Below are positions 19,808 through 41,107 of a stretch of 64,000 nucleotides of DNA, in pieces (the stretch's first letter is position 1; every line of letters starts with the position of its first letter). Where the stretch lies: NCBI GenBank assembly GCA_963849325.1, contig CAWKHF010000005.1, positions 544,001-608,000 of the forward strand, in the 5' to 3' direction. The notes beneath the pieces are model-generated. The model had not been told where the DNA came from, made no database searches, and was given only the letters and a program-made list of their open reading frames with translations. This DNA is from an uncultured Planctomycetota bacterium (GTDB taxonomy: Bacteria > Planctomycetota > Planctomycetia > Gemmatales > Gemmataceae). The position numbers and the translations under genes were made by a program.

Positions 19808-21113
19808 ATGAACGCATCGCCGCGTCTGCTGGTCCATCCGCGCGACGAGATCGTGCGGACGATGGAGCGCATCTACCGCTACCGCATGACGACCACCTCC
19901 GGCGGCAACCTGTCTGTCCGCGACGAGGACGGCGACGTGTGGATCACGCCGGCGCGGGTGGACAAGGGCAGCCTGCGCCGCGAGGACGTCGTCCGCGTCC
20001 GGGCCGACGGCGGCGTCGAGGGGCTGCACCGGCCGTCCTCGGAGCACCCCTTCCACCAGGGCGATCTACCAGGCGCGGCCCGACCTCCGCGCCGTCGTCC
20101 ACGCCCATCCGGTCGCCCTGGTGGCGTTCAGCATCTGCCGCCGCGTGCCGGACACGTCGCTGATGCCGCAGGCCGGACACGTCTGCGGCGCCGTCGGCTT
20201 CGCGCCGTACGCCCTGCCCGGCAGCGAGCAGCTCGGCCGCAACATCGCCGCCGTCTTCGGCCAGGGGTTCAACTGCGTGCTGCTGGAGAACCACGGCGTC
20301 GTCATCGGCGGGGCCAGCTTGGCCGAGGCGTTCCAGCGCTTCGAGACCCTGGAATTCACGGCCAAGACGATCATCAAGGCCAGCCTGCTCGGCCCGGTGC
20401 GCTACCTGACGCCGGAGCAGATCGCCCGGTCGCAGCCGCCGCGAGCCGCTGCCGGAGTTCGAGCCGGGACCGGCCGGCACGCACGAGAAGGAGCTGCGCC
20501 GAGCCGTCTGCGAATTCGTCCGTCGCGGCTACCGCCAGCGCCTGATGACCAGCACCGAGGGCAGCTTCTCCGCTCGCCTCGACGGCGACACCTTCCTCAT
20601 CACCTCCTACGGCATCGACCGGCAGGCACGTCGAGGTCGGATCAACTTGACGCTCGTCCACGACGGCCGCCGGGCCGTGGGCAACGCAGCCCAGCCGCGC
20701 CGTCCACATCCACCGGGCCATCTACCGCCGGCATCCCGAGGTCCACGCCATCGTCAACGCCATCCCGGTCAACGCCACGGCCTTCAGCGTCACCGCCACG
20801 CCGCTGGACAGCCGTACTATCCCCGAGAGTTACCTGCTGCTGCGCGACGTGGCCGCGGTGCCGTTCGGTTGGCAGTACGAGGACGGCGGACGCATCGCTG
20901 AGGCGGTCGTCGCCGGATCGGCCCATCGCCCTGCTCGAGAACGACGGCGTACTGGTCCTGGGCACGAGTCCGCTGGACGCCTTCGACCGGCTGGAAGTGC
21001 TGGAGTCCACGGCGGAGGCGATCATCAACAGCCGGGCCATCGGCGCGGTGCGGCGCATGGGCGACGACGTGATCGAGGAGCTGACCGAGGCGTTTTTGAG
21101 GAAGCAGGCATGA
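19808..21113 (+). CDS. Class II aldolase/adducin family, two tandem domains (several frameshifts)
   Basis: [22 protein letters not shown] and LLENHG; second domain STEGSFSAR and LLENDG. Confidence 0.88.
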
Positions 21114-26166: not shown

Positions 26167-26233
26167 CGTTTCGCCGCGACGCGCAGCGGAGCGCGGGAGC
26201 ACTCCCGCGCTCCCTGCGCGTCGCGGCGAAACG
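26167..26233. repeat. REP-like palindrome, family A (GTTTxGCCGCGACGCGCAGCGGAGCGCGG...)
   Basis: Inverted repeat; copies at 36498 and 63256. Confidence 0.88.
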
Positions 26234-31980: not shown

Positions 31981-32110
31981 CACCACGGAAAACACGGAAA
32001 ACACGGAAAAAGACAAAAACAGAAACAGAGAATTCAGACCAGCGAAGATCGATAAATGAGCGCTACCTCCCTTGCTGTCTTTTTCCGTGTTTTCCGTGTT
32101 TTCCGTGGTG
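31981..32110. repeat. Inverted repeat with 9-mer tandem arms, family D (CACGGAAAA x3)
   Basis: CACCACGGAAAACACGGAAAACACGGAAAAAGACA ... TGTCTTTTTCCGTGTTTTCCGTGTTTTCCGTGGTG. Confidence 0.9.
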
Positions 32111-32141
32111 GGCCTCTTCTGGGAAAGCGCCGCGTCTACCC

Positions 32142-32789
32142 TCATTCGGTCGTCTGTCCCAGGCGCGTCTCGAATTTCTTCCGCAAGACCGCGGCCAGGT
32201 GACGCACACAAAGCGCCTGCCGCATCCGTTCGGTGTTCGTCTTGTCGTGGACCATCAGGCGAAGCAACTCGGTCACGCTCAGCCGGTTCTCCTCCTCGCG
32301 CAGCAATTCCACCGCATCGCCCGGACTTACCGTGCCTTCTTCCAGCACGGCGAGGTAAAACCCCGGACGATTGCTCGCCAGGAAGCGCGGGATGATCCCC
32401 GGATCGCCAAACCGGATGCCCAGCTTGTAACAGGGCAGGCGCGGCTGCGTGACGACGAGGCGCGCCGTGCCGACCCGCAGCTCGTCGCCGACGTGCAGGG
32501 CGTCCTCGCGCAGCCCCTCGGTAGTGAGGTTCTCGCCGAAGACGCCGAGGGGCAGTTCGCGGCCCGGAAGCTGCTCGCGCCAGTAATCGTAGTTCTCGAC
32601 GGGGTAGGCATAGACGGCCTTGTCCGGCCCGCCGTGGACGGAGAGATCGGCCTGAGCGTCGCCCTCCAGGTTGAGACGCCGCAACGGAACGCGGCCGTCG
32701 ATCGGCTCCTTGAAAATCCCCGTGGACACGACATCGCTCCCCCACGCGATTTCGCGGGGCAAACCGACGTTGACGGACACGATTCGCAT
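32142..32789 (-). CDS. MOSC domain protein (YiiM-like)
   Basis: TGIFKEP, GDAQADLSVHGGPDKAVY, FGENLT and TQPRLPCYKL motifs. Confidence 0.93.
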   Translation of the reverse strand: MRIVSVNVGLPREIAWGSDVVSTGIFKEPIDGRVPLRRLNLEGDAQADLSVHGGPDKAVYAYPVENYDYWREQLPGRELPLGVFGENLTTEGLREDALHVGDELRVGTARLVVTQPRLPCYKLGIRFGDPGIIPRFLASNRPGFYLAVLEEGTVSPGDAVELLREEENRLSVTELLRLMVHDKTNTERMRQALCVRHLAAVLRKKFETRLGQTTE

Positions 32790-32949
32790 GACGACGGAAC
32801 CCTCGCGCGGTACACGAGATTGACAGCGGGGCCGGTCTTTGACTATTCTCCCCGTTTTCGCCGGGCGGACAACCTCGGGCACATGAATTGCTCCACATCG
32901 GAAGCGTCTTGGACCGATAAGGAATTGTTTGCCGGGAGGATCCTCCGTC

Positions 32950-35900
32950 ATGGCCGAAACTTCCAAGAACGAAATGACGACCCAGCTTGCCGAGGGTCTC
33001 TCCGTCAGCCGAACTGCGAACGGCAATGGGCTGACGTTGACCATCCGCCTTCAGGGTCCATCCGATTGCGTACTGCACTGGGGTTTGAGCCGGCGTCCCG
33101 GCGGGGCGTGGAATCGCCCTCCCCAGTCGTGCTGGCCGCAAGGGACGACGCCCGCCGACGGTAACGCCGTGCGTACCCCATTCGCTGGCGATGGTCAGAA
33201 AGAGGTGTCCATCCACCTCGATTCATCCGGCCCGTGGCGCGGCCTGGCCTTTGTCGTCCACGCCCCGAAAGAAAATCGCTGGATCAAGAGCGGCAATACG
33301 GACTTCGTCCTGCCGCTGCCCCGTCCGCGGGGCCGCTCGCCCGAAGAAGCGTTGACTGAGTGGGCGCCGGAAGGAACGGGGACGCGCCAGGTCCATTCGC
33401 TCGACAACGGTGATCGCGTCGCGGCGGCTATCGCCGAGACGCCCGACGGCGTGCGCGTCCGCCTGGTTTGCGACGCCGCGGCGCCGCTGGCCTTGCACTG
33501 GGGCTTGGCGTGGCAGTTCCAGCAGGAATGGACGCTGCCGCCGGAGAATTACCGGCCGGAAGGCACGACGCTCGCCGACGACAAGGCCGCGCGCACGCCG
33601 TTCACCGAGCGCGAGGGGTTGCAATACCTGGAGCTGCGCTTCCCCCGACCGTCCGAGGGACCGGGGCCGCGCGGCCTGCGCCTCGTTCTGCATCAGGCCG
33701 ACGAGGGCTGGCTCAAGAGCGACGGCAAAGACCTGTACTTGCCGCTTGTTCCAGGGCGAGCCGGACGCGCGACTGTCCGCGCCGAAGCTGAGCGAGTTGG
33801 CCGAGCAGATCGTCGGCGCCGAGAAGGGTGCCGGTTCGTGGACCCTGATGCACCGCTTCAACCTATGCCACGATCTGCTGGGGTCGGTACAGGATGACGA
33901 GGAGGGGCTGGCGCTGCTGTTCGCCTGGCTGCGCTACAGCGCCATCCGCCAACTCGATTGGCAGCGGCGCTACAACACCAAGCCGCGCGAGCTGAGTCAC
34001 GCCCAGGATCGACTGACGATACGGTTGGCCGGCGTCTGGCGCCGGAACCCGCCGGAGTCTCCGCAGTCGCTTCTGGGTGCGGCAAATGCTCACGACACTC
34101 GGCCGCGGCGGCGAGGGGCAGCGCGTGCGCGATGAGATCCTGCACATCATGCACCGCAATCATCTCAAGGAAACGGCCGGCAACTTCATCGAGGAATGGC
34201 ACCAAAAGCTGCACAACAACACCACGCCCGACGACGTCGTCATCTGCCAGGCTTACCTCGCCTTCCTCCGTAGCAACGGCGACGCCGGCACGTTCTACCG
34301 CACCCTGGAGCAGGGCGGCGTCACGCGCGCAGCGGCTGCAAGGCTTCGAGCGCCCCATCCGCTCCGAGCCGATCCTCTACGGCGACCGCAAGGATGCGCT
34401 GATCGGCGAATTCGAGAACTTCCTGAAAATCCTCAAGTCGGTGCATTCGGGCACGGACCTGGACAGCGCCGTCGCCGCGGCGCGCGGCCGACTCGACGGC
34501 GGCATGAACCGGCAACTCGATGGCCTGCTCGGCCCTGCGCGGGAAGGGTCCGGTCGTGGATGCGCTGGCCGGTACCGTCACGGCGGCGCGCGAAGGTCTG
34601 GCGAAGGCGCTGGCCGCCATCGGCGACGACGCCGGCCGCCGCGACCTGCTCTTCCTCGATCTGGCGCTGGAGGAATACCTGCGTGCGGCGATCGAACGGC
34701 AGAACGTCAGCCAGCTCCGCCGCGATGCGTTGGCGGCGCTGGTGCGGCGCGGCCCTGCGAAACCTCCAGCTCACGGCCGATTCCGCGGAGCTGGCCATCT
34801 GCGCCGGACACTGGGCGGCGCTGTTGGCTCGACCGCGCGACGGCCGCGACTGGGCGCTGCATGCCCGCAGCGTGACCGATCGCGTTTCGCGCTGGGTCGC
34901 AGGACTTCACCGGCGCCATCTATCGGCGCCTGCAACCCAAGGCCGAGGCGCTGGGCGCCGCCTTCGGCGCCGAGAAGTGGACGGTGCCGTTGTTCAGCGA
35001 GGAGGTCATCCGCGGCGGGCCGGCCTTCACCCTTTCGCTGCTCTTGCGTCCGCTCGACCGTCTTCTGCGCGAGGCGGCGGGACTGGGCGGCTGGCAGGTC
35101 ATCAGTCCCGCTCGCGCCACCGGCAAAGTCCGCGCGGTCAGTCGCCTCCACGATGTGCAGGCGGAGCGCTTCGCGGAGCCGACCGTGCTGGTCGCCGACC
35201 AGGTGAGCGGCGACGAGGAGATGCCCGAGGGCGTCACGGCGGTCCTCACCTCCGATTCGCCGGACCTGGTGTCGCACGTGGCCGTCCGCGCCCGCAACGC
35301 CGGCGTTCTCTTCGCCACCTGCTTCGACGCCGACGAATACCAGAACGTCTCAGGCGCTGGCGGGCCAATTCCTCAGCCTGCGCGTGACGCCGGGCGGCGA
35401 CGTGCAATATACGGAATCGTCCAAGTCCGTAGGGTGGGCCGAGTCTTCGAGGCCCACCGAGGAGCGTGGTGGGCCTCGTTCCTCGGCCCACCCTACGAAG
35501 ACCACGAAGGCCACCGCGTCCTTCCACGGATGGGTAGTTGGACAGGACCAGTTCGCCCCCGGCCTCGTTGGCGGCAAGTCGAACAACCTCAACGGCCTGC
35601 GCGGCCGACTGCCCGACTGGATCCGTCTGCCGAAATCCATCGCCCTGCCCTTCGGCGTCTTCGACCGCGTGCTGGCGGACGCGGCCAATCGTCGTCTGCG
35701 CGAGGAATGCAAAACCCTGATCGCGGCGGCCGAGACGAAGGGGACCGAAGCGTTGGCCGAACTGCGAGCCAAGCTGCATGGATTGACGGCGCCGACGGAA
35801 TTGCCAGCGGCGCTTCGGGAGGGCTGGCAGCGCGCCGGCCTGCCGCCGGTGCCGTGGGAGCAGACCTGGCACGCCATCCGCCGCGTCTGGGCGTCCAAGT

Positions 35901-36495
35901 GGAACGATCGCGCCTACCTGTCGCGCCGCGCTCGCGGTGTCCCGCACGACAGCCTGCAAATGGCCGTGCTTATTCAGCAAGTGGTGCCGGCCGATTATGC
36001 CTTCGTCATCCACACGGTCAATCCGCTCACCGGCAACCACGGCGAGATCTTCGCCGAGGTCGTTCTGGGCATGGGCGAGACGCTGGTCGGCAATTATCCC
36101 GGCCGGGCGCTCGGCTTCGTCTGCCGCAAGACCGACCTCAAGCCCGAGATACTCTCCTATCCCGGCAAGAGCGTGGGCCTTTACGGCAAGGGCGTGATCT
36201 TCCGCTCCGACTCCAACGGCGAGGACTTGGAGGGCTTTGCCGGCGCGGGACTTTATGATAGCTTCCTGGCCGAGGAGCCGGAGCATCGCGCTGCTCGACT
36301 ACCGCAACGAGAAGCTGGTCTGGGACGCGAAAGGTCCGCGACGACCTGCTCCGCTCGATCGCTCGGGCCGGGCTGGAAGTCGAACGTCTGCTCGGCTCGG
36401 CCCAGGACATCGAAGGAGCGATCGCCGGCGGCGAGCTGCACGTCGTCCAGACCCGTCCGCAAGTGGGACTGGACGACGACTCTCTCGCCGCGTAA
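32950..36495 (+). CDS. Alpha-glucan, water dikinase (GWD1/SEX1-like), ~1180 aa, several frameshifts
   Basis: Two CBM45-like modules (LHWG...W..PP....P.GT.....A.RTPF); LMHRFN; RQLDWQRRYNTKPRELSHAQDRL; GQRVRDEIL; EEWHQKLHNNTTPDDVVIC; PDLVSHVAVRARN; VWASKWNDRAY; FRSDSNGEDLEGFAGAGLYDS; VVQTRPQ. Confidence 0.93.
35428..35497. repeat. GTAG-type REP palindrome inside the GWD coding sequence
   Basis: CGTAGGGTGGGCCGAG...CTCGGCCCACCCTACG with internal GGCCCACC/GGTGGGCC arms. Confidence 0.85.
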
Positions 36496-36497
36496 AC

Positions 36498-36561
36498 GTT
36501 TAGCCGCGACGCGCAGCGGAGCGCGGCGAGCGCCGCGCTCCGCTGCGCGTCGCGGCTAAAC
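36498..36561. repeat. REP-like palindrome, family A
   Basis: GTTTAGCCGCGACGCGCAGCGGAGCGCGG...CCGCGCTCCGCTGCGCGTCGCGGCTAAAC. Confidence 0.9.
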
Positions 36562-36576
36562 CAGAAAGGATTCATC

Positions 36577-37457
36577 GTGACCCCGCGCATCCGCATCGGC
36601 AATCAGACGGCCATTTCGTGCGCCGACCCCTGACGCCTTTCCGCTTCGCCCTGCGACAACGGCTTCGACGCCTTCGAGTGGTTCGCCGACAAGAAGGTAC
36701 ATGCCGACGGCCGTAGCACCGGCTGGGACGAGCCGGACATGGACGCGGCCACGCGCCTCGCCATCCGCGACGCCGGCGTGGCCCATGACGTGCTCTTCAC
36801 CGTCCACGCCCCCTGGCAGGCCAACCCACTGCACGGCGACGGCATCCCCCTCCTGATCCGCAGCATCGATTTCGCCCGCGACATCGGTGCCGACCTGGTC
36901 AACCTGCACCTGTACATGGAGGAGGGGCCGGACGGTTACGCGCGGCGCTGGCGCCGGTGCTGCGGCATGCCGCCGAAGCGGGGCTGCGCGTCAGCATCGA
37001 GAACACGCCGCACACGACGCCGGACGACTTCAACGAAACTTTCGCCCGTCTCGCCCAGCTGGACGCCGTCCCGTCCGGGACGGTCGGCATGTGCCTGGAC
37101 ATCGGCCACGCCAACCTCTGCGCCGCCACCCGCAACAACTTCGTGCGCTACCTCGACGCCCTGGCGCCCGCGGTGCCCATCATCCACGTCCACGCCCACG
37201 AGAACCACGGCGATGCTGACAGCCACCTGACGCTGTTCACCGGCCCCTCGAAGGACGATGACGCCGGCGTGCGCGCGTTCCTGGATCGCCTGCGCCGCCG
37301 CCATTACCGCGGTGCCGTGATCCTGGAGCAGTGGCCCGACCCGCCGCAACTCCTCGTCGAAGCCGCCACCCGACTGCGCAGCCTCCTCGGCCTGCGTCCT
37401 CTCGCCGCGCCGGATGGCGCGACGACGGAGAAAAGCACGTCCCGGCGAGGCGCCTGA
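36577..37457 (+). CDS. Xylose isomerase-like / AP endonuclease 2 TIM-barrel metalloprotein (frameshifts near 36630-36655 and 36945)
   Basis: AAAGGA RBS + GTG; RIGNQT, FEWF, TVHAPW, IENTP, CLDIGHAN, HVHAHEN.GD.DSH and ILEQW motifs. Confidence 0.8.
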
Positions 37458-37831
37458 ACGGGTGATGGGTCGCTCGTTGCCACGCTCGGCATGGGAGCGA
37501 GCGACAGCTCAAATTTGCACATCGCTTGTTCAAAAAAGACGGACACCGGGGACTTCGGTCTCCGCTTATCCCTCTTTCCAGGCCGGCAGCCGTTGCCTGC
37601 GCGATTTTTTTCTCATGCTCTTTCGCTCTTCTTCCGATTGTTTTTTGGGGATCGCGCAAGAAAAGAGAGGAGGAGAAAGCGCACGGCGCGAGAAGGTAGG
37701 AGAACAAGAACAGGTGTGAGAGGGTGCCGGCGATTTTCTTCACCAAAAATCACGGATTCACTCTCGCCCGCCCTCGGTTCATCGGCGAAAGTTCCCTTGT
37801 CCCAATTGGCGCGCCGCTTGCTCTACCACTC

Positions 37832-37993
37832 CTGTCGGCTTCCAGCCCCCGGTTGGAGGCACTTGGGCTGTGGAGACGGCGCCTCATCGACGGAAAGGCT
37901 CGGAGGGAGCGAGCCTTGCTGAGGCTACCGAAGAAGGTTGGAACGCGGCGGCTCGGAGGGGCCGCGTCCACCACGTCGAGGGCGGACAGAGAT
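37832..37993 (+). promoter_or_regulatory. Structured 5' leader of the amylase gene with repeated GGCTCGGAGGG
   Basis: Several nested stems; the 11-mer occurs at 37897 and 37950; eight GGA triplets. Confidence 0.35.
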
Positions 37994-39277
37994 ATGCAAC
38001 AAGACATCAAGGTTCCGTGGGTAGCAGTCGTCTCGTTTCCTCCGGGGCAAACGCCCGCCGAGGGGAAACACTATATCGGTAACGGGCGCGACATTCTCCT
38101 GGAGGGTTTCCACTGGGAGTCCCACCAGGGCGGCGCGTCCGATCCTGCAACGGGCATGCGCAAAAGTTGGTATCGCGTTCTCGTGGAGAACGCGGCAGCT
38201 GTCAAGGCGGCCGGTTTCACCTGGGTGTGGTTCCCGCCGCCGTCCGATTCATTGGCGCCGCAGGGATATATCCCACGGCGTTGGAACGTCCTGGATACGG
38301 CTTATGGCAGCGAGGCCGAACTGCGGGCGGCCATCCACGCGCTGGAACCGGTGCGGGCGATGGCCGACGTGGTCATCAATCACCGCGTCGGCGTCCACAC
38401 CAGCGGCGCCGACTTTGACGATCCGCCATTTCCCAATAACCGAGCGGCCATTGCCCGCGATGATTCTTCCGGCGTCGGCACCGGCAATCCCGACTCCGGC
38501 GAACACCATGCCGCCGGCCGCGATCTCGACCATACCAACCCCGATGTCCGCCACGCCATCACGGACTACTTGCGCAAGCTCAAAGCGATCGGCTTCCAGG
38601 GTTGGCGCTACGACCTGACCAAGGGCTACGCCGGCCGTTTCATCGCCGAGTACAACGACACCACCGAGCCGGGCTTCTCCGTCGGCGAATTCTACGACGG
38701 CGATCGGCAGAAGGTGACAAGTTGGATCGACGCCACCGGCGGCAAGACGACGGCGTTCGATTTCCCCACGCGCTATCTGCTGTATGAGGCGTGCCTGAGC
38801 GACGATTACGGCCGGCTCCGTTCGCACAACAGCGGCCGAGTGGTTCCCGGCGGTTTGCTCGGCCTGTGGCCGAGCCGTTCGGTGACTTTTCTGGATAATC
38901 ACGATACGGAAAGTCGCCGCGATTACGAACATAGCTGTCACAACGACGGCACGCGGCACTTTCCCGGCGAGACGGTCGGCATGGGTTACGCCTACCTGCT
39001 GACGCATCCCGGTACGCCGTGCGTCTTCTGGCCGCACTTCTTCGATTGGGGCCAACCGACGCGGCAGCGAATCGAGCGCCTGATCCACCTGCGACGGCAC
39101 TGCGGCATTCATTCGCGCAGCCACGTGGACATCAAGGAGGCCGGCCACGGATTGTACGCGGCGATCATCGACGGCAAGGTGGCGATGAAGCTCGGTCGTC
39201 GTGGCTGGTCGCCCGGCGGCGGCTGGCACCTCGCCGTCGACGGCGACAAGTTCGCCGTGTGGATGCGATCCAACTAA
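37994..39277 (+). CDS. Alpha-amylase, plant/GH13_6-like, no signal peptide
   Basis: ILLEGFHWES, VWFPPPSDS.APQGYIP, DVVINHR, catalytic WRYD / VGEF / FLDNHD, GYAYLLTHPG.P, C-terminal LYAAIIDGKVAMKLG beta-domain. Confidence 0.93.
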   Translation: MQQDIKVPWVAVVSFPPGQTPAEGKHYIGNGRDILLEGFHWESHQGGASDPATGMRKSWYRVLVENAAAVKAAGFTWVWFPPPSDSLAPQGYIPRRWNVLDTAYGSEAELRAAIHALEPVRAMADVVINHRVGVHTSGADFDDPPFPNNRAAIARDDSSGVGTGNPDSGEHHAAGRDLDHTNPDVRHAITDYLRKLKAIGFQGWRYDLTKGYAGRFIAEYNDTTEPGFSVGEFYDGDRQKVTSWIDATGGKTTAFDFPTRYLLYEACLSDDYGRLRSHNSGRVVPGGLLGLWPSRSVTFLDNHDTESRRDYEHSCHNDGTRHFPGETVGMGYAYLLTHPGTPCVFWPHFFDWGQPTRQRIERLIHLRRHCGIHSRSHVDIKEAGHGLYAAIIDGKVAMKLGRRGWSPGGGWHLAVDGDKFAVWMRSN

Positions 39278-39299
39278 TCTGGTGGTTCGTGGAAACGAT

Positions 39300-39357
39300 A
39301 CGAGCCGCGAACGTCCGCAAGGGGAGGCAACCCCGCTCGCGGACGCTTGCGGCTCGT
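39300..39357. repeat. REP-like palindrome, family C variant
   Basis: ACGAGCCGCGAACGTCCGC...GCGGACGCTTGCGGCTCGT between convergent genes. Confidence 0.7.
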
Positions 39358-39388
39358 GCCTTGCGCGGCCAGTCCCATGGATGGGTCA

Positions 39389-41107
39389 TTACCCGAATCG
39401 GCGGCTGACCGACGTACACGGCCAGGTCGTGAAGGAAATCCTGGCCTGACCATCCGACAAGGAATGTCCCATAACTCCGGTTCGCCACGCCGGCGCCAGC
39501 AAGCACGCCTGGGCGATCCCCAGTCGAAGGGCGGCGCTCTCCCCGACGCGCTGATCGTACTCCTCGCGCTCGAAGCAGAAGGCGACGCGAGCCACGCGGA
39601 AACACAGCGGCTCCGCTTCGCCGACGAAAACGGCGGCGGCGCGGGAACGCACCTCGCCGGCGAGCGGCTCACAGCTGTCCAGCGGGATTTCCAGCGCGAT
39701 CTCCTGCCGGGTGATTCGGCCATACCACGGCTGCGACGAGAAGGCGCGGTCCTGCGGCACACAGTAGGCCAGAAACGCACGATAGCTGTCGAAACACTCG
39801 CTCCAGGGTGGGCCGGGCAGGGCGGCGCCGTTGGGACGGAGCGCTGCCTCCAGGTCGGGAGCGCTGCCGGTCCCTGGATCGAGCCGGACACGGCAGACGT
39901 GATCCGCGCCGACCGCAACGGCGGCGCGGTGGAGAGCGTGCATGGGCATGCCCTCGGAGAGCAGACGAGCGGCCAGCGCGTGCGGCGTGCTGCTGATGGC
40001 GTTGGTCACGAAATAGACGCCCGGCAGTCCGCTGTGCGGGTCGTGGACGTAGAGACGCCAGTTGGTATGCACCGGCGAGGGCAGCAAGCGGCGCAGTGGC
40101 CCCAGCCGGCGCGGGCCGAAATGGCCGTGCCGGTAGGTCAGGTGCGTGAACAGGGCGTAGCGGCCGGCGCGGCCGAGTCGTTGCAGCTCCAGCCCGGCCG
40201 GGACGAACGACTCCAGACGCTCCGCCTCCACGAGATAATTAACATAAATAACGTCGGTTATATCGCTAACGAAGGCGACGGGCGGCAGCCATTCGCAGTA
40301 GGCACGGAGCAGCCGGCTGTTGGCCAGAACGTCGAGGGCGCGGCCGACCGGGCCGCGTCCAGGGTGCCGCCACGGCGCCAACCGGCCGTGGGTCTCCTCC
40401 GGTCGAGCGCGGCGCAACACCTGCTCGGCGGCCACGGCCAGCCAGGCCAGCAGCAGCGTCAGGCCCACTCCGTTGGCGGCGCCGACCACGGCCGCGGGGG
40501 GCTGCCATTCCTCCGGCAGCAACAGCCCGGCGCTGCCGACGGCGAGCGCGCTCCAGGTCACGATCGACAGGAGCGTCAAGTTTCGGCCCCATGTCCCGGC
40601 GGCGGCGAAGCACCAACTCCAGCCCAGGGCCATGCACAGGTACAGCGTGCCGCCCCAGGCGACGACCGCCTCGTATGCCTGCTTCTCGAATTGCAGATAC
40701 GGCGTCAGGTCGCCATCGCGGTCGGCCCTGGCGGCGAGGTCCAGACCGCGCGTCACCCACAGAGCCTGGCCGCGCTGGTCGGGAAAAATCGCCAGCAGAG
40801 TACACACTAGTACGACCGCCGCCGGCAGACGCGGCACCCAGGACGTGCGCCACAGGGCCAGGCCGGTCAACAAGTCCACGAACGCCGTCACTTGCCAGGG
40901 CAGCCAGCCCAACCGCCATAGCCAGGGATGGGCCGCCAGGTAAGCGACGCGGGCGGCGTCGTCGGCGGAGGTGTCGCCGGGCAGGCCAGGCAGCAGCAAC
41001 AGCGCCGTGCCGGCCAGGGCGAGGACGTGAACGCCCAGGTTGATAAGTAAGACCTGCTCCAGAAACCGCGCCGCCAGACGCGGCTCGCTCTTGGTCGTGA
41101 CGTGCAT
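39389..41107 (-). CDS. Membrane domain + DUF2071 (YqjF-like) protein
   Basis: About 6 TM helices, then VIYVNYLV....LE.FVPAGLEL...TNWRLYV....G..GVYF. Confidence 0.7.
   Translation of the reverse strand: MHVTTKSEPRLAARFLEQVLLINLGVHVLALAGTALLLLPGLPGDTSADDAARVAYLAAHPWLWRLGWLPWQVTAFVDLLTGLALWRTSWVPRLPAAVVLVCTLLAIFPDQRGQALWVTRGLDLAARADRDGDLTPYLQFEKQAYEAVVAWGGTLYLCMALGWSWCFAAAGTWGRNLTLLSIVTWSALAVGSAGLLLPEEWQPPAAVVGAANGVGLTLLLAWLAVAAEQVLRRARPEETHGRLAPWRHPGRGPVGRALDVLANSRLLRAYCEWLPPVAFVSDITDVIYVNYLVEAERLESFVPAGLELQRLGRAGRYALFTHLTYRHGHFGPRRLGPLRRLLPSPVHTNWRLYVHDPHSGLPGVYFVTNAISSTPHALAARLLSEGMPMHALHRAAVAVGADHVCRVRLDPGTGSAPDLEAALRPNGAALPGPPWSECFDSYRAFLAYCVPQDRAFSSQPWYGRITRQEIALEIPLDSCEPLAGEVRSRAAAVFVGEAEPLCFRVARVAFCFEREEYDQRVGESAALRLGIAQACLLAPAWRTGVMGHSLSDGQARISFTTWPCTSVSRRFG

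Follow-up and report, generated by a model that had tools for sequence, protein, structure and literature searches.

In an uncultured planctomycete of the family Gemmataceae, a gene for a homologue of alpha-glucan, water dikinase (GWD) is followed on the plus strand by a gene for a triosephosphate isomerase (TIM)-barrel metalloenzyme and a gene for a plant-type alpha-amylase. The three genes lie in a 64,000-nucleotide stretch of contig CAWKHF010000005.1 (assembly GCA_963849325.1, positions 544,001 to 608,000), referred to below as the window (G000:C5:544001-608000), which forms part of an 8.16-Mb genome (G000) assembled in 14 contigs with a completeness of 84.7%. Comparative analysis of this sequence favors, with moderate confidence, the view that the locus encodes a cytoplasmic module for the phosphorylation and breakdown of alpha-glucan, the reading frames of which are broken only by errors of assembly. 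As judged from the loci compared, the conserved core of the system is the pair of GWD and TIM barrel, the amylase being a Gemmataceae-specific addition. This phylum-spanning pair, the main new result, constitutes the more interesting object and points to a way, so far undescribed, in which bacteria may loosen and digest stored glucan. A more far-reaching proposal, which we regard as possible rather than probable, is that the GWD-associated TIM barrel represents a new class of metal-dependent phosphoglucan phosphatase. Together with GWD it would form a reversible phosphorylation cycle in at least eight bacterial phyla known almost only from metagenome-assembled genomes (MAGs), often with the participation of a TIM-fused second dikinase resembling phosphoglucan, water dikinase (PWD).

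Three Linked Genes in the Window

A preliminary description of this DNA, made from the letters alone, had named three consecutive plus-strand genes, and both their positions and their identities are borne out by Pfam and by comparison with solved relatives. What that description had overlooked is that, although three homology units are present, neither the GWD nor the TIM gene has an intact frame in the sequence as given. The GWD homologue (32950..36495, plus strand), identified by Pfam and tblastn, has to be read across nine +1 frame changes, and Pfam finds its domains in successive pieces of open reading frame (ORF): tandem Ig-like/CBM45-type domains (PF23166 Ig_N_CWD1, two stretches at ~32998-33740, 2.8e-41), the phosphohistidine domain (PF22973 GWD1_pHisD, 35089-35358, 1.2e-34), and the ATP-binding PPDK_N domain (PF01326, best stretch 35858-36091, 1.1e-24). 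The phosphohistidine domain has its histidine-bearing stretch at ~35230-35270, and we take this histidine to be the catalytic phosphohistidine of GWD. For fold models and searches the intact GWD and TIM orthologues of a relative, G009, were used in place of the frame-broken window copies. Residues 292-718 of the G009 dikinase match the plant GWD structure 9ha9 (4.4e-86), with 9qvi also matched, and the central GWD-specific domain is thus present. The window GWD is colinear with intact congeneric orthologues of 1185-1250 aa. When the GWD proteins of ten relatives were compared with the window by tblastn, they aligned in nine colinear pieces, 65-88% identical to that of G009. By these matches, the domain architecture of GWD is complete in the window copy.

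The second gene (36577..37457, plus strand) runs from a GTG start at 36577 to a stop at 37457, carries three indels, and encodes a TIM-barrel metalloenzyme of the AP_endonuc_2/xylose-isomerase-like type (PF01261), belonging to a GWD-associated subfamily. The Pfam match falls in the ORF 36957-37457, and a profile built from TIM orthologues (A2, see below) matches at 36586-36948 and 36924-37388, in two frames; identity to the G009 TIM protein is 81% over 150 aa. The third gene (37994..39277, plus strand) is intact and encodes a barley AMY-like GH13 alpha-amylase of 427 aa, with PF07821 Alpha-amyl_C2 (6.3e-19) and PF00128 Alpha-amylase found in the ORF 37724-39277. It aligns end to end with barley AMY2 (PDB 1amy, 1.3e-75) and with a rice enzyme, and D, E, and D of the window protein match barley D179, E204, and D289, which we take to be the catalytic residues. 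Within the genus, the amylases are 83-89% identical. From the TIM stop at 37457 to the amylase ATG at 37994 the gap measures 536 bp, precisely as first described.

Conservation of the trio was followed in a family sample of 41 genomes, namely G000 and 40 relatives. The phosphohistidine domain PF22973 was detected in 11 of them, with one match per genome in genus g1, and G006 constitutes a twelfth GWD genome, in which the C-terminal 326 aa of the dikinase stand at a contig end, with the TIM gene and the amylase behind them. All 12 GWD genomes possess an amylase and a high-scoring TIM orthologue (at least 416 bits in each, except for the split window copy), and the three genes co-localize in 11 of the 12. 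The GWD loci of ten relatives were fetched for comparison of gene neighborhoods, the window and G006 being considered besides. In all ten the TIM gene lies directly 3′ of GWD; the amylase is linked in nine, downstream in eight and upstream of GWD in G022, and lies elsewhere in G014. Hence the co-occurrence and co-localization on which the preliminary description had staked its module are found in the window, in G006, and in nine to ten of the ten fetched loci. The genes that flank the trio vary between genomes. Among the 29 other genomes, a weaker TIM-like gene in G023 (343 bits, 46% identity, no adjoining GWD) was set aside as a paralogue, and amylase homologues occur in G019 and G023.

The GWD–TIM Pair Across Phyla

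A pattern scan of prokaryotes, with one genome per species, yielded 259 GWD-encoding stretches. The locus counts given here were taken from the best 80 of these (41-100% identity over ~1150 residues), nearly all of which are labelled MAGs. The Planctomycetota among these 80 comprise Gemmataceae and others, including Candidatus Scalindua. Chromatiales, Thiotrichales, and other Gammaproteobacteria are represented, as are Methylophilus and Methylobacillus, and further loci come from Desulfobacterota, Nitrospirota (Thermodesulfovibrionia, Candidatus Sulfobium), Nitrospinota, Verrucomicrobiota, Acidobacteriota, and Deferribacteres. Full or partial GWD homologues were also seen on two MAG contigs labelled Promethearchaeota/archaeon (L088, L105); the names of these contigs indicate very low coverage, and they may therefore have been mis-binned.

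Of the 64 loci that extend at least 1 kb 3′ of GWD, 53 have a TIM gene directly behind it in the same orientation, with a median of 38 nt between the two. The TIM barrel is encoded as a stand-alone protein in 28 loci, is cut by the contig end in three, and in 23 serves as N-terminal domain in a second dikinase of ~1170-1290 aa, in which AP_endonuc_2 is followed by GWD1_pHisD and PPDK_N (e.g., L036:10436-13951). Such TIM–dikinase fusions stand directly after GWD in Gammaproteobacteria, Desulfobacterota, Nitrospirota, Candidatus Scalindua, and others. A set of 26 genomes, made up of a Chromatiales MAG and 25 of its relatives, was sampled independently; PF22973 is present in three of them, and these three alone have the TIM subfamily. 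Each of three genomes tested contains exactly one TIM-subfamily gene, which adjoins GWD.

The family genome G014 harbors a separate fragment of a second dikinase (L018, 12288-14159; 623 aa), with GWD1_pHisD as its only domain, after the TIM gene; by its layout, this arrangement is intermediate between the fused and the TIM-only forms. A protein of ~348 aa that belongs to no Pfam family and is weakly CbiR-like (E 2e-4) is encoded in 24 of the 80 loci, in many cases behind the TIM–dikinase fusion (e.g., L036:13955-14998), and may be a second, divergent TIM-barrel partner. In the genome paper of Desulfotignum phosphitoxidans, two adjacent genes, Dpo_3c01990 and Dpo_3c02000, are named "pyruvate water dikinase" (PMC4046663); they may represent a GWD pair under a wrong name, in a Desulfobacterales strain that is in culture.

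The pair often stands among genes of alpha-glucan metabolism. When one representative of each cluster of neighbors was annotated, clusters of GlgA (19 of the 80 loci), GT1/GT4 proteins (18), GlgB (10), GH57 (10), and GlgX-like proteins (6) were recognized, and a GH13 protein with an hDGE_amylase-like N-terminus occurs in 22. The barley-type amylase was found in only seven of the 80 loci, all titled Gemmataceae, Gemmatales, or Planctomycetota. The three-gene module of the preliminary description therefore stands as a linked trio in Gemmataceae, whereas in the wider set it reduces to GWD and the TIM barrel.

The TIM-Barrel Enzyme as a Candidate Phosphoesterase

An alignment of 34 TIM orthologues from GWD-bearing phyla (A2), which also served as the profile mentioned above, is invariant at 46 positions, among which His, Asp, and Glu abound. 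Nine of its positions correspond to metal ligands—H77, H111, E142, D175, H178, H204, D215, H217, and E251 in the numbering of the G009 orthologue (contig L026)—and are invariant in all 34 sequences; the first eight align on the motifs of endonuclease IV (EndoIV), and E251 closes the barrel. Their H-H-E-D-H-H-D-H-E order and their spacing match, by alignment, the ligands of Chlamydia pneumoniae EndoIV, reported as His75, His115, Glu153, Asp187, His190, His224, Asp237, His239, and Glu269; the list in the text of that paper has His229 in place of His224 (PMC13113976). The A2 profile ranks MJ1311 of Methanocaldococcus jannaschii (3wqo, 5.1e-14) first among solved relatives, followed by M. tuberculosis endonuclease IV (5.3e-5), the apurinic/apyrimidinic (AP) endonuclease of African swine fever virus (ASFV; 1.3e-3), TTHB071, and E. 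coli endonuclease IV (0.027), and ketose epimerases appear only at E > 0.1. [quoted passage not shown] Taken together, these features suggest that the TIM barrel is a phosphoesterase unrelated to the dual-specificity phosphatases (DSPs) and acting on glucan-bound phosphate.

The GWD-linked enzyme has the TIM fold in common with endonuclease IV and CbiR, and its nine His/Asp/Glu ligands follow one another in the order seen there, at similar spacing. It differs from them in the additional invariant residues H206, H208, E209, N210, and D213, and in its genomic context, which is that of glucan metabolism rather than of DNA repair or cobamide genes. MJ1311 (PDB 3wqo, named "D-tagatose 3-epimerase-like protein") is the best solved relative both by profile and by fold and shares with the TIM protein the motif HVH-H-(D/E)-N-x-G-x-x-D-x-H. 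Nevertheless, the two proteins are just 22-23% identical, and MJ1311 is itself uncharacterized; Table 1 of a 2009 article lists it as a predicted EndoIV homologue (PMC2770678).

AlphaFold2 models the G009 protein with confidence as a TIM barrel (predicted local distance difference test score 88.4, predicted template modelling score 0.86). The top Foldseek matches of this model are MJ1311, the ASFV AP endonuclease, UlaE, and ketose 3-epimerases, all of the PF01261 superfamily, and a search of the ESM Atlas returned only clusters named "xylose isomerase-like TIM barrel". The presence of UlaE and ketose 3-epimerases among these matches leaves room for a different, rather doubtful function, in which the protein would not be a phosphatase at all: it might be an isomerase or epimerase of sugars or sugar phosphates, or it might read phosphate in a metal-dependent manner and so target a PWD-like dikinase to pre-phosphorylated sites. 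The role of a reader would agree with the architecture of the fusions, where the TIM barrel occupies the N-terminal place held in GWD by carbohydrate-binding domains. Yet the nine EndoIV-type ligands do not vary between phyla, the profile places MJ1311 and then the endonuclease IV proteins above the epimerases, and the only NCBIfam match is a phosphodiesterase. A reader would moreover have no second dikinase to target in genus g1, where the TIM protein stands alone and PF22973 occurs once per genome. A phosphoesterase therefore remains the preferred assignment.

Frame Breaks in the GWD and TIM Genes

The longest ORF within GWD spans 436 aa, and the window contains no uninterrupted GWD frame of the kind found in G001, G004, G005, G008, G009, and G010. 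The homology instead passes through frames 1>2>3>1>2>3>1>2>3>1, that is, through nine net +1 shifts, near 33743, 34057, 34324-30, 34532, 34744-48, 34898, 35349, 36283-89, and 36331. The tblastn pieces fall in frames 1,2,3,1,2,3,1,2,1, to which a brief frame-3 stretch at 36283-36330 is to be added; when the DNA is aligned with that of G009 and G007, the window shows one extra base, net, at every GWD junction, and codon-model decoding places the switches at the same sites. Of the three indels in the TIM gene, those near 36627 and 36946 are deletions and the one near 36655 is an insertion.

The decoding relied on a codon model trained on 628 long ORFs of G000 and a seven-state Viterbi procedure over all contigs, a frame switch being counted when both frames lie on the same strand and no stop codon separates them. 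Throughout the 8.16 Mb of G000, 3131 such switches were found (3.8 per 10 kb), of which 2155 are of the insertion and 976 of the deletion type (2.2:1). They occur in clumps, with at least seven in 160 of the 8116 4-kb windows and a maximum of 12; the GWD window scores seven. The rpoB gene (C1:334967-338611) is split into at least four frame pieces, glgA into three, and one glgC-like copy into six. As a control, eight fragmented relatives were decoded in the same way, and three switches turned up in their 133 kb. The relatives G007 and G002, which have few contigs, show six and three per 20 kb, respectively. G000, G002, and G007 each consist of 5-14 contigs, yet their completeness is 74-85%. 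Since the switches occur genome-wide and hit rpoB and glgA too, the breaks in GWD and the TIM gene most likely reflect indels of assembly, and the frames would be intact in the living organism.

True pseudogenization of GWD and TIM in this strain through real indels, with the amylase alone still functional, would account for the contrast between twelve indels in 4.5 kb and none in the 1.3-kb amylase, and for an indel density within the top 2% of 4-kb windows. It is nonetheless unlikely. The essential rpoB and further genes are split likewise, and the 160 4-kb windows noted above are equally or more dense. GWD is whole in the fragmented assemblies, but other long-contig MAGs (L040, L073, L096, G007, and G002) likewise have it split. 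Read in the correct frames, the window GWD contains no stop codons, and its identity to G009 amounts to ~77% (weighted over nine high-scoring segment pairs) as against 63-74% for seven other intact orthologues, so that no excess of amino-acid divergence is apparent. Programmed +1 frameshifting was rejected: the sites have no common motif, and the same type of switch occurs genome-wide, including in rpoB. Elsewhere in the window, four successive +1 switches were noted at 20063-20922 (within 19824-21096).

A Proposed Pathway for Stored Glucan

The genome survey called for by the preliminary description revealed glgA, three glgC-like loci, about six CBM48 loci, and a GT35 phosphorylase in G000, and an ordinary glycogen pathway is therefore present on which the module could act. 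The same description had favored an internal over an external glucan, which fits the wider data, since the GWD–TIM pairs of other phyla sit among glgA, glgB, GH57, and GH13 genes. No N-terminal export signal is visible in the proteins of the trio, the N-termini of which were inspected by eye only. In the pathway that we propose, the GWD homologue would place phosphate on glucosyl residues of the alpha-glucan stored by the cell itself, in an ATP-driven reaction via phospho-histidine. This phosphorylation would open ordered or poorly soluble regions of the glucan, and the plant-type alpha-amylase would then cut the loosened chains. The TIM enzyme, with its predicted EndoIV-type three-metal site, would remove esterified phosphate from the glucan or phospho-oligosaccharides and thereby act as a counterpart of the unrelated eukaryotic DSP phosphatases SEX4, LSF2, and laforin; both the substrate and the direction of its reaction are presumed here.

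Several observations weigh against this scheme. With 47.6 bits against a cut-off of 105, the TIM protein does not reach the level required for CbiR, and none of the nfo models in NCBIfam was matched at E ≤ 0.01; for both reasons it is regarded as a separate subfamily. The Foldseek ranking fails to part the relatives of endonuclease IV from the ketose 3-epimerases, and because these families rank close together, the fold alone leaves the chemistry undecided. In 11 of the 64 loci no TIM gene lies downstream of GWD, although three of the MAGs concerned have one at another GWD copy (L053/L080 with L081, L089 with L090, and L046 with L097). Two unlinked genes with a DSPc domain, on other contigs of G000 (C9:96165 and C12:758224), might supply a phosphatase. 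The 12 frame breaks in 4.5 kb are roughly seven times as dense as the average for the genome, and the nine that fall in GWD are without exception +1. Finally, to join a phosphatase to a dikinase in one protein would seem, on first view, a futile arrangement.

That the dikinase acts on external starch or on a non-glucan acceptor, the clustered amylase then reflecting scavenging, is highly improbable: NCBIfam does see only a C-terminal similarity to phosphoenolpyruvate (PEP) synthase and rifamycin phosphotransferase, and NCBI labels the homologues "PEP/pyruvate-binding domain-containing protein", but the GWD-specific N-terminal and central domains are present, the enzyme requires ATP and lacks a visible export signal, and its neighbors in other phyla are genes of glycogen synthesis and branching.

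Comparison with Eukaryotic Glucan Phosphorylation

The starch literature treats glucan phosphorylation by GWD as a hallmark of starch-storing eukaryotes. With the starch cycle of plants and algae (GWD/PWD, SEX4/LSF2, AMY3/BAM) the bacterial system shares the domain architecture of GWD, the partnership of GWD with a plant-type alpha-amylase, and, in many loci, a second, PWD-like dikinase. It differs in being a bacterial, probably cytoplasmic, operon-like cluster, and in having, instead of a linked DSP phosphatase, a linked or fused TIM-barrel metalloenzyme. The architecture of PWD includes a CBM20, and the second dikinase of the bacterial loci carries its TIM barrel in this place. As the DSPc catalytic domain of SEX4, LSF2, and laforin is absent from the linked enzyme, the TIM protein is proposed as a functional analogue only. 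In the turnover of animal glycogen, as in the scheme proposed here, phosphate on the storage glucan must be removed for normal turnover; laforin, which does so, is a CBM20–DSP protein unlike a TIM barrel. A 2026 review describes prokaryotes as devoid of laforin and hence perhaps of glycogen phosphate (PMC13666283).

The preliminary description knew of no such system in planctomycetes. Our full-text literature search likewise found no description of a bacterial GWD or of this system, the spelling of the enzyme name with a comma and the supplementary trees of a 2026 preprint having fallen outside it. In addition to the NCBI label quoted above, homologues bear in the metagenomic data of JGI the name "alpha-glucan, water dikinase", and database annotation thus partly anticipates the identification of GWD. 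The TIM barrel is a concrete and readily assayed candidate for the missing bacterial phosphoglucan phosphatase, the GWD–TIM pair offers a marker for bacteria that may store semicrystalline glucan, and the bacterial GWD sequences can be used for rooting the evolution of GWD and PWD. If the TIM barrel indeed represented a new class of phosphatase, ordered and poorly soluble alpha-glucan stores would be far commoner in bacteria than thought, and the question of a bacterial origin of eukaryotic GWD would be reopened.

Noncoding Elements and Flanking Genes

About 100 nt 5′ of the GWD start, at 32820..32849 on the plus strand, a consensus scan found a sigma-70-like promoter match (TTGACA-18-TATTCT, 10 of 12 positions), which is a pattern match only; the scan returned two sites against 0.6 expected. 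The 536-bp gap before the amylase, for which the preliminary description had supposed a separate promoter, contains a non-coding leader (37743..37993, plus strand) conserved in nine of nine loci of the genus. An N-terminal extension of the amylase from a GTG at 37724 was rejected, because relatives carry in-frame stops just 5′ of the ATG at 37994, and the longer ORF is therefore not the gene; in short-read relatives the open frames span 428-456 aa. The leader, of ~255 nt, is predicted to fold into a structure with 90% of its bases paired and has no Rfam match; covariation lends it weak support, as 65 of 500 shuffles yield at least as many doubly changed pairs as were observed.

The window also contains genes for a MOSC protein, PanB, and RsmH/MraZ upstream of the trio, and for a DUF2071 protein, a binding protein, and a transporter of the major facilitator superfamily downstream. 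Between GWD and the TIM gene, a palindromic hairpin with a perfect 30-bp stem (36498..36561) is predicted to fold with -73.3 kcal/mol (z -9.8). Over 32000-40000, Rfam gave only sub-threshold, chance-level matches, which fall on this palindrome. Because its arm occurs 286 times in G000 at up to four mismatches, the hairpin was assigned to a family of palindromes resembling repetitive extragenic palindromic (REP) elements. A like hairpin stands at the GWD–TIM junction of G009, G007, and G002, and the hairpin recurs in the window near 26168 and 63256.

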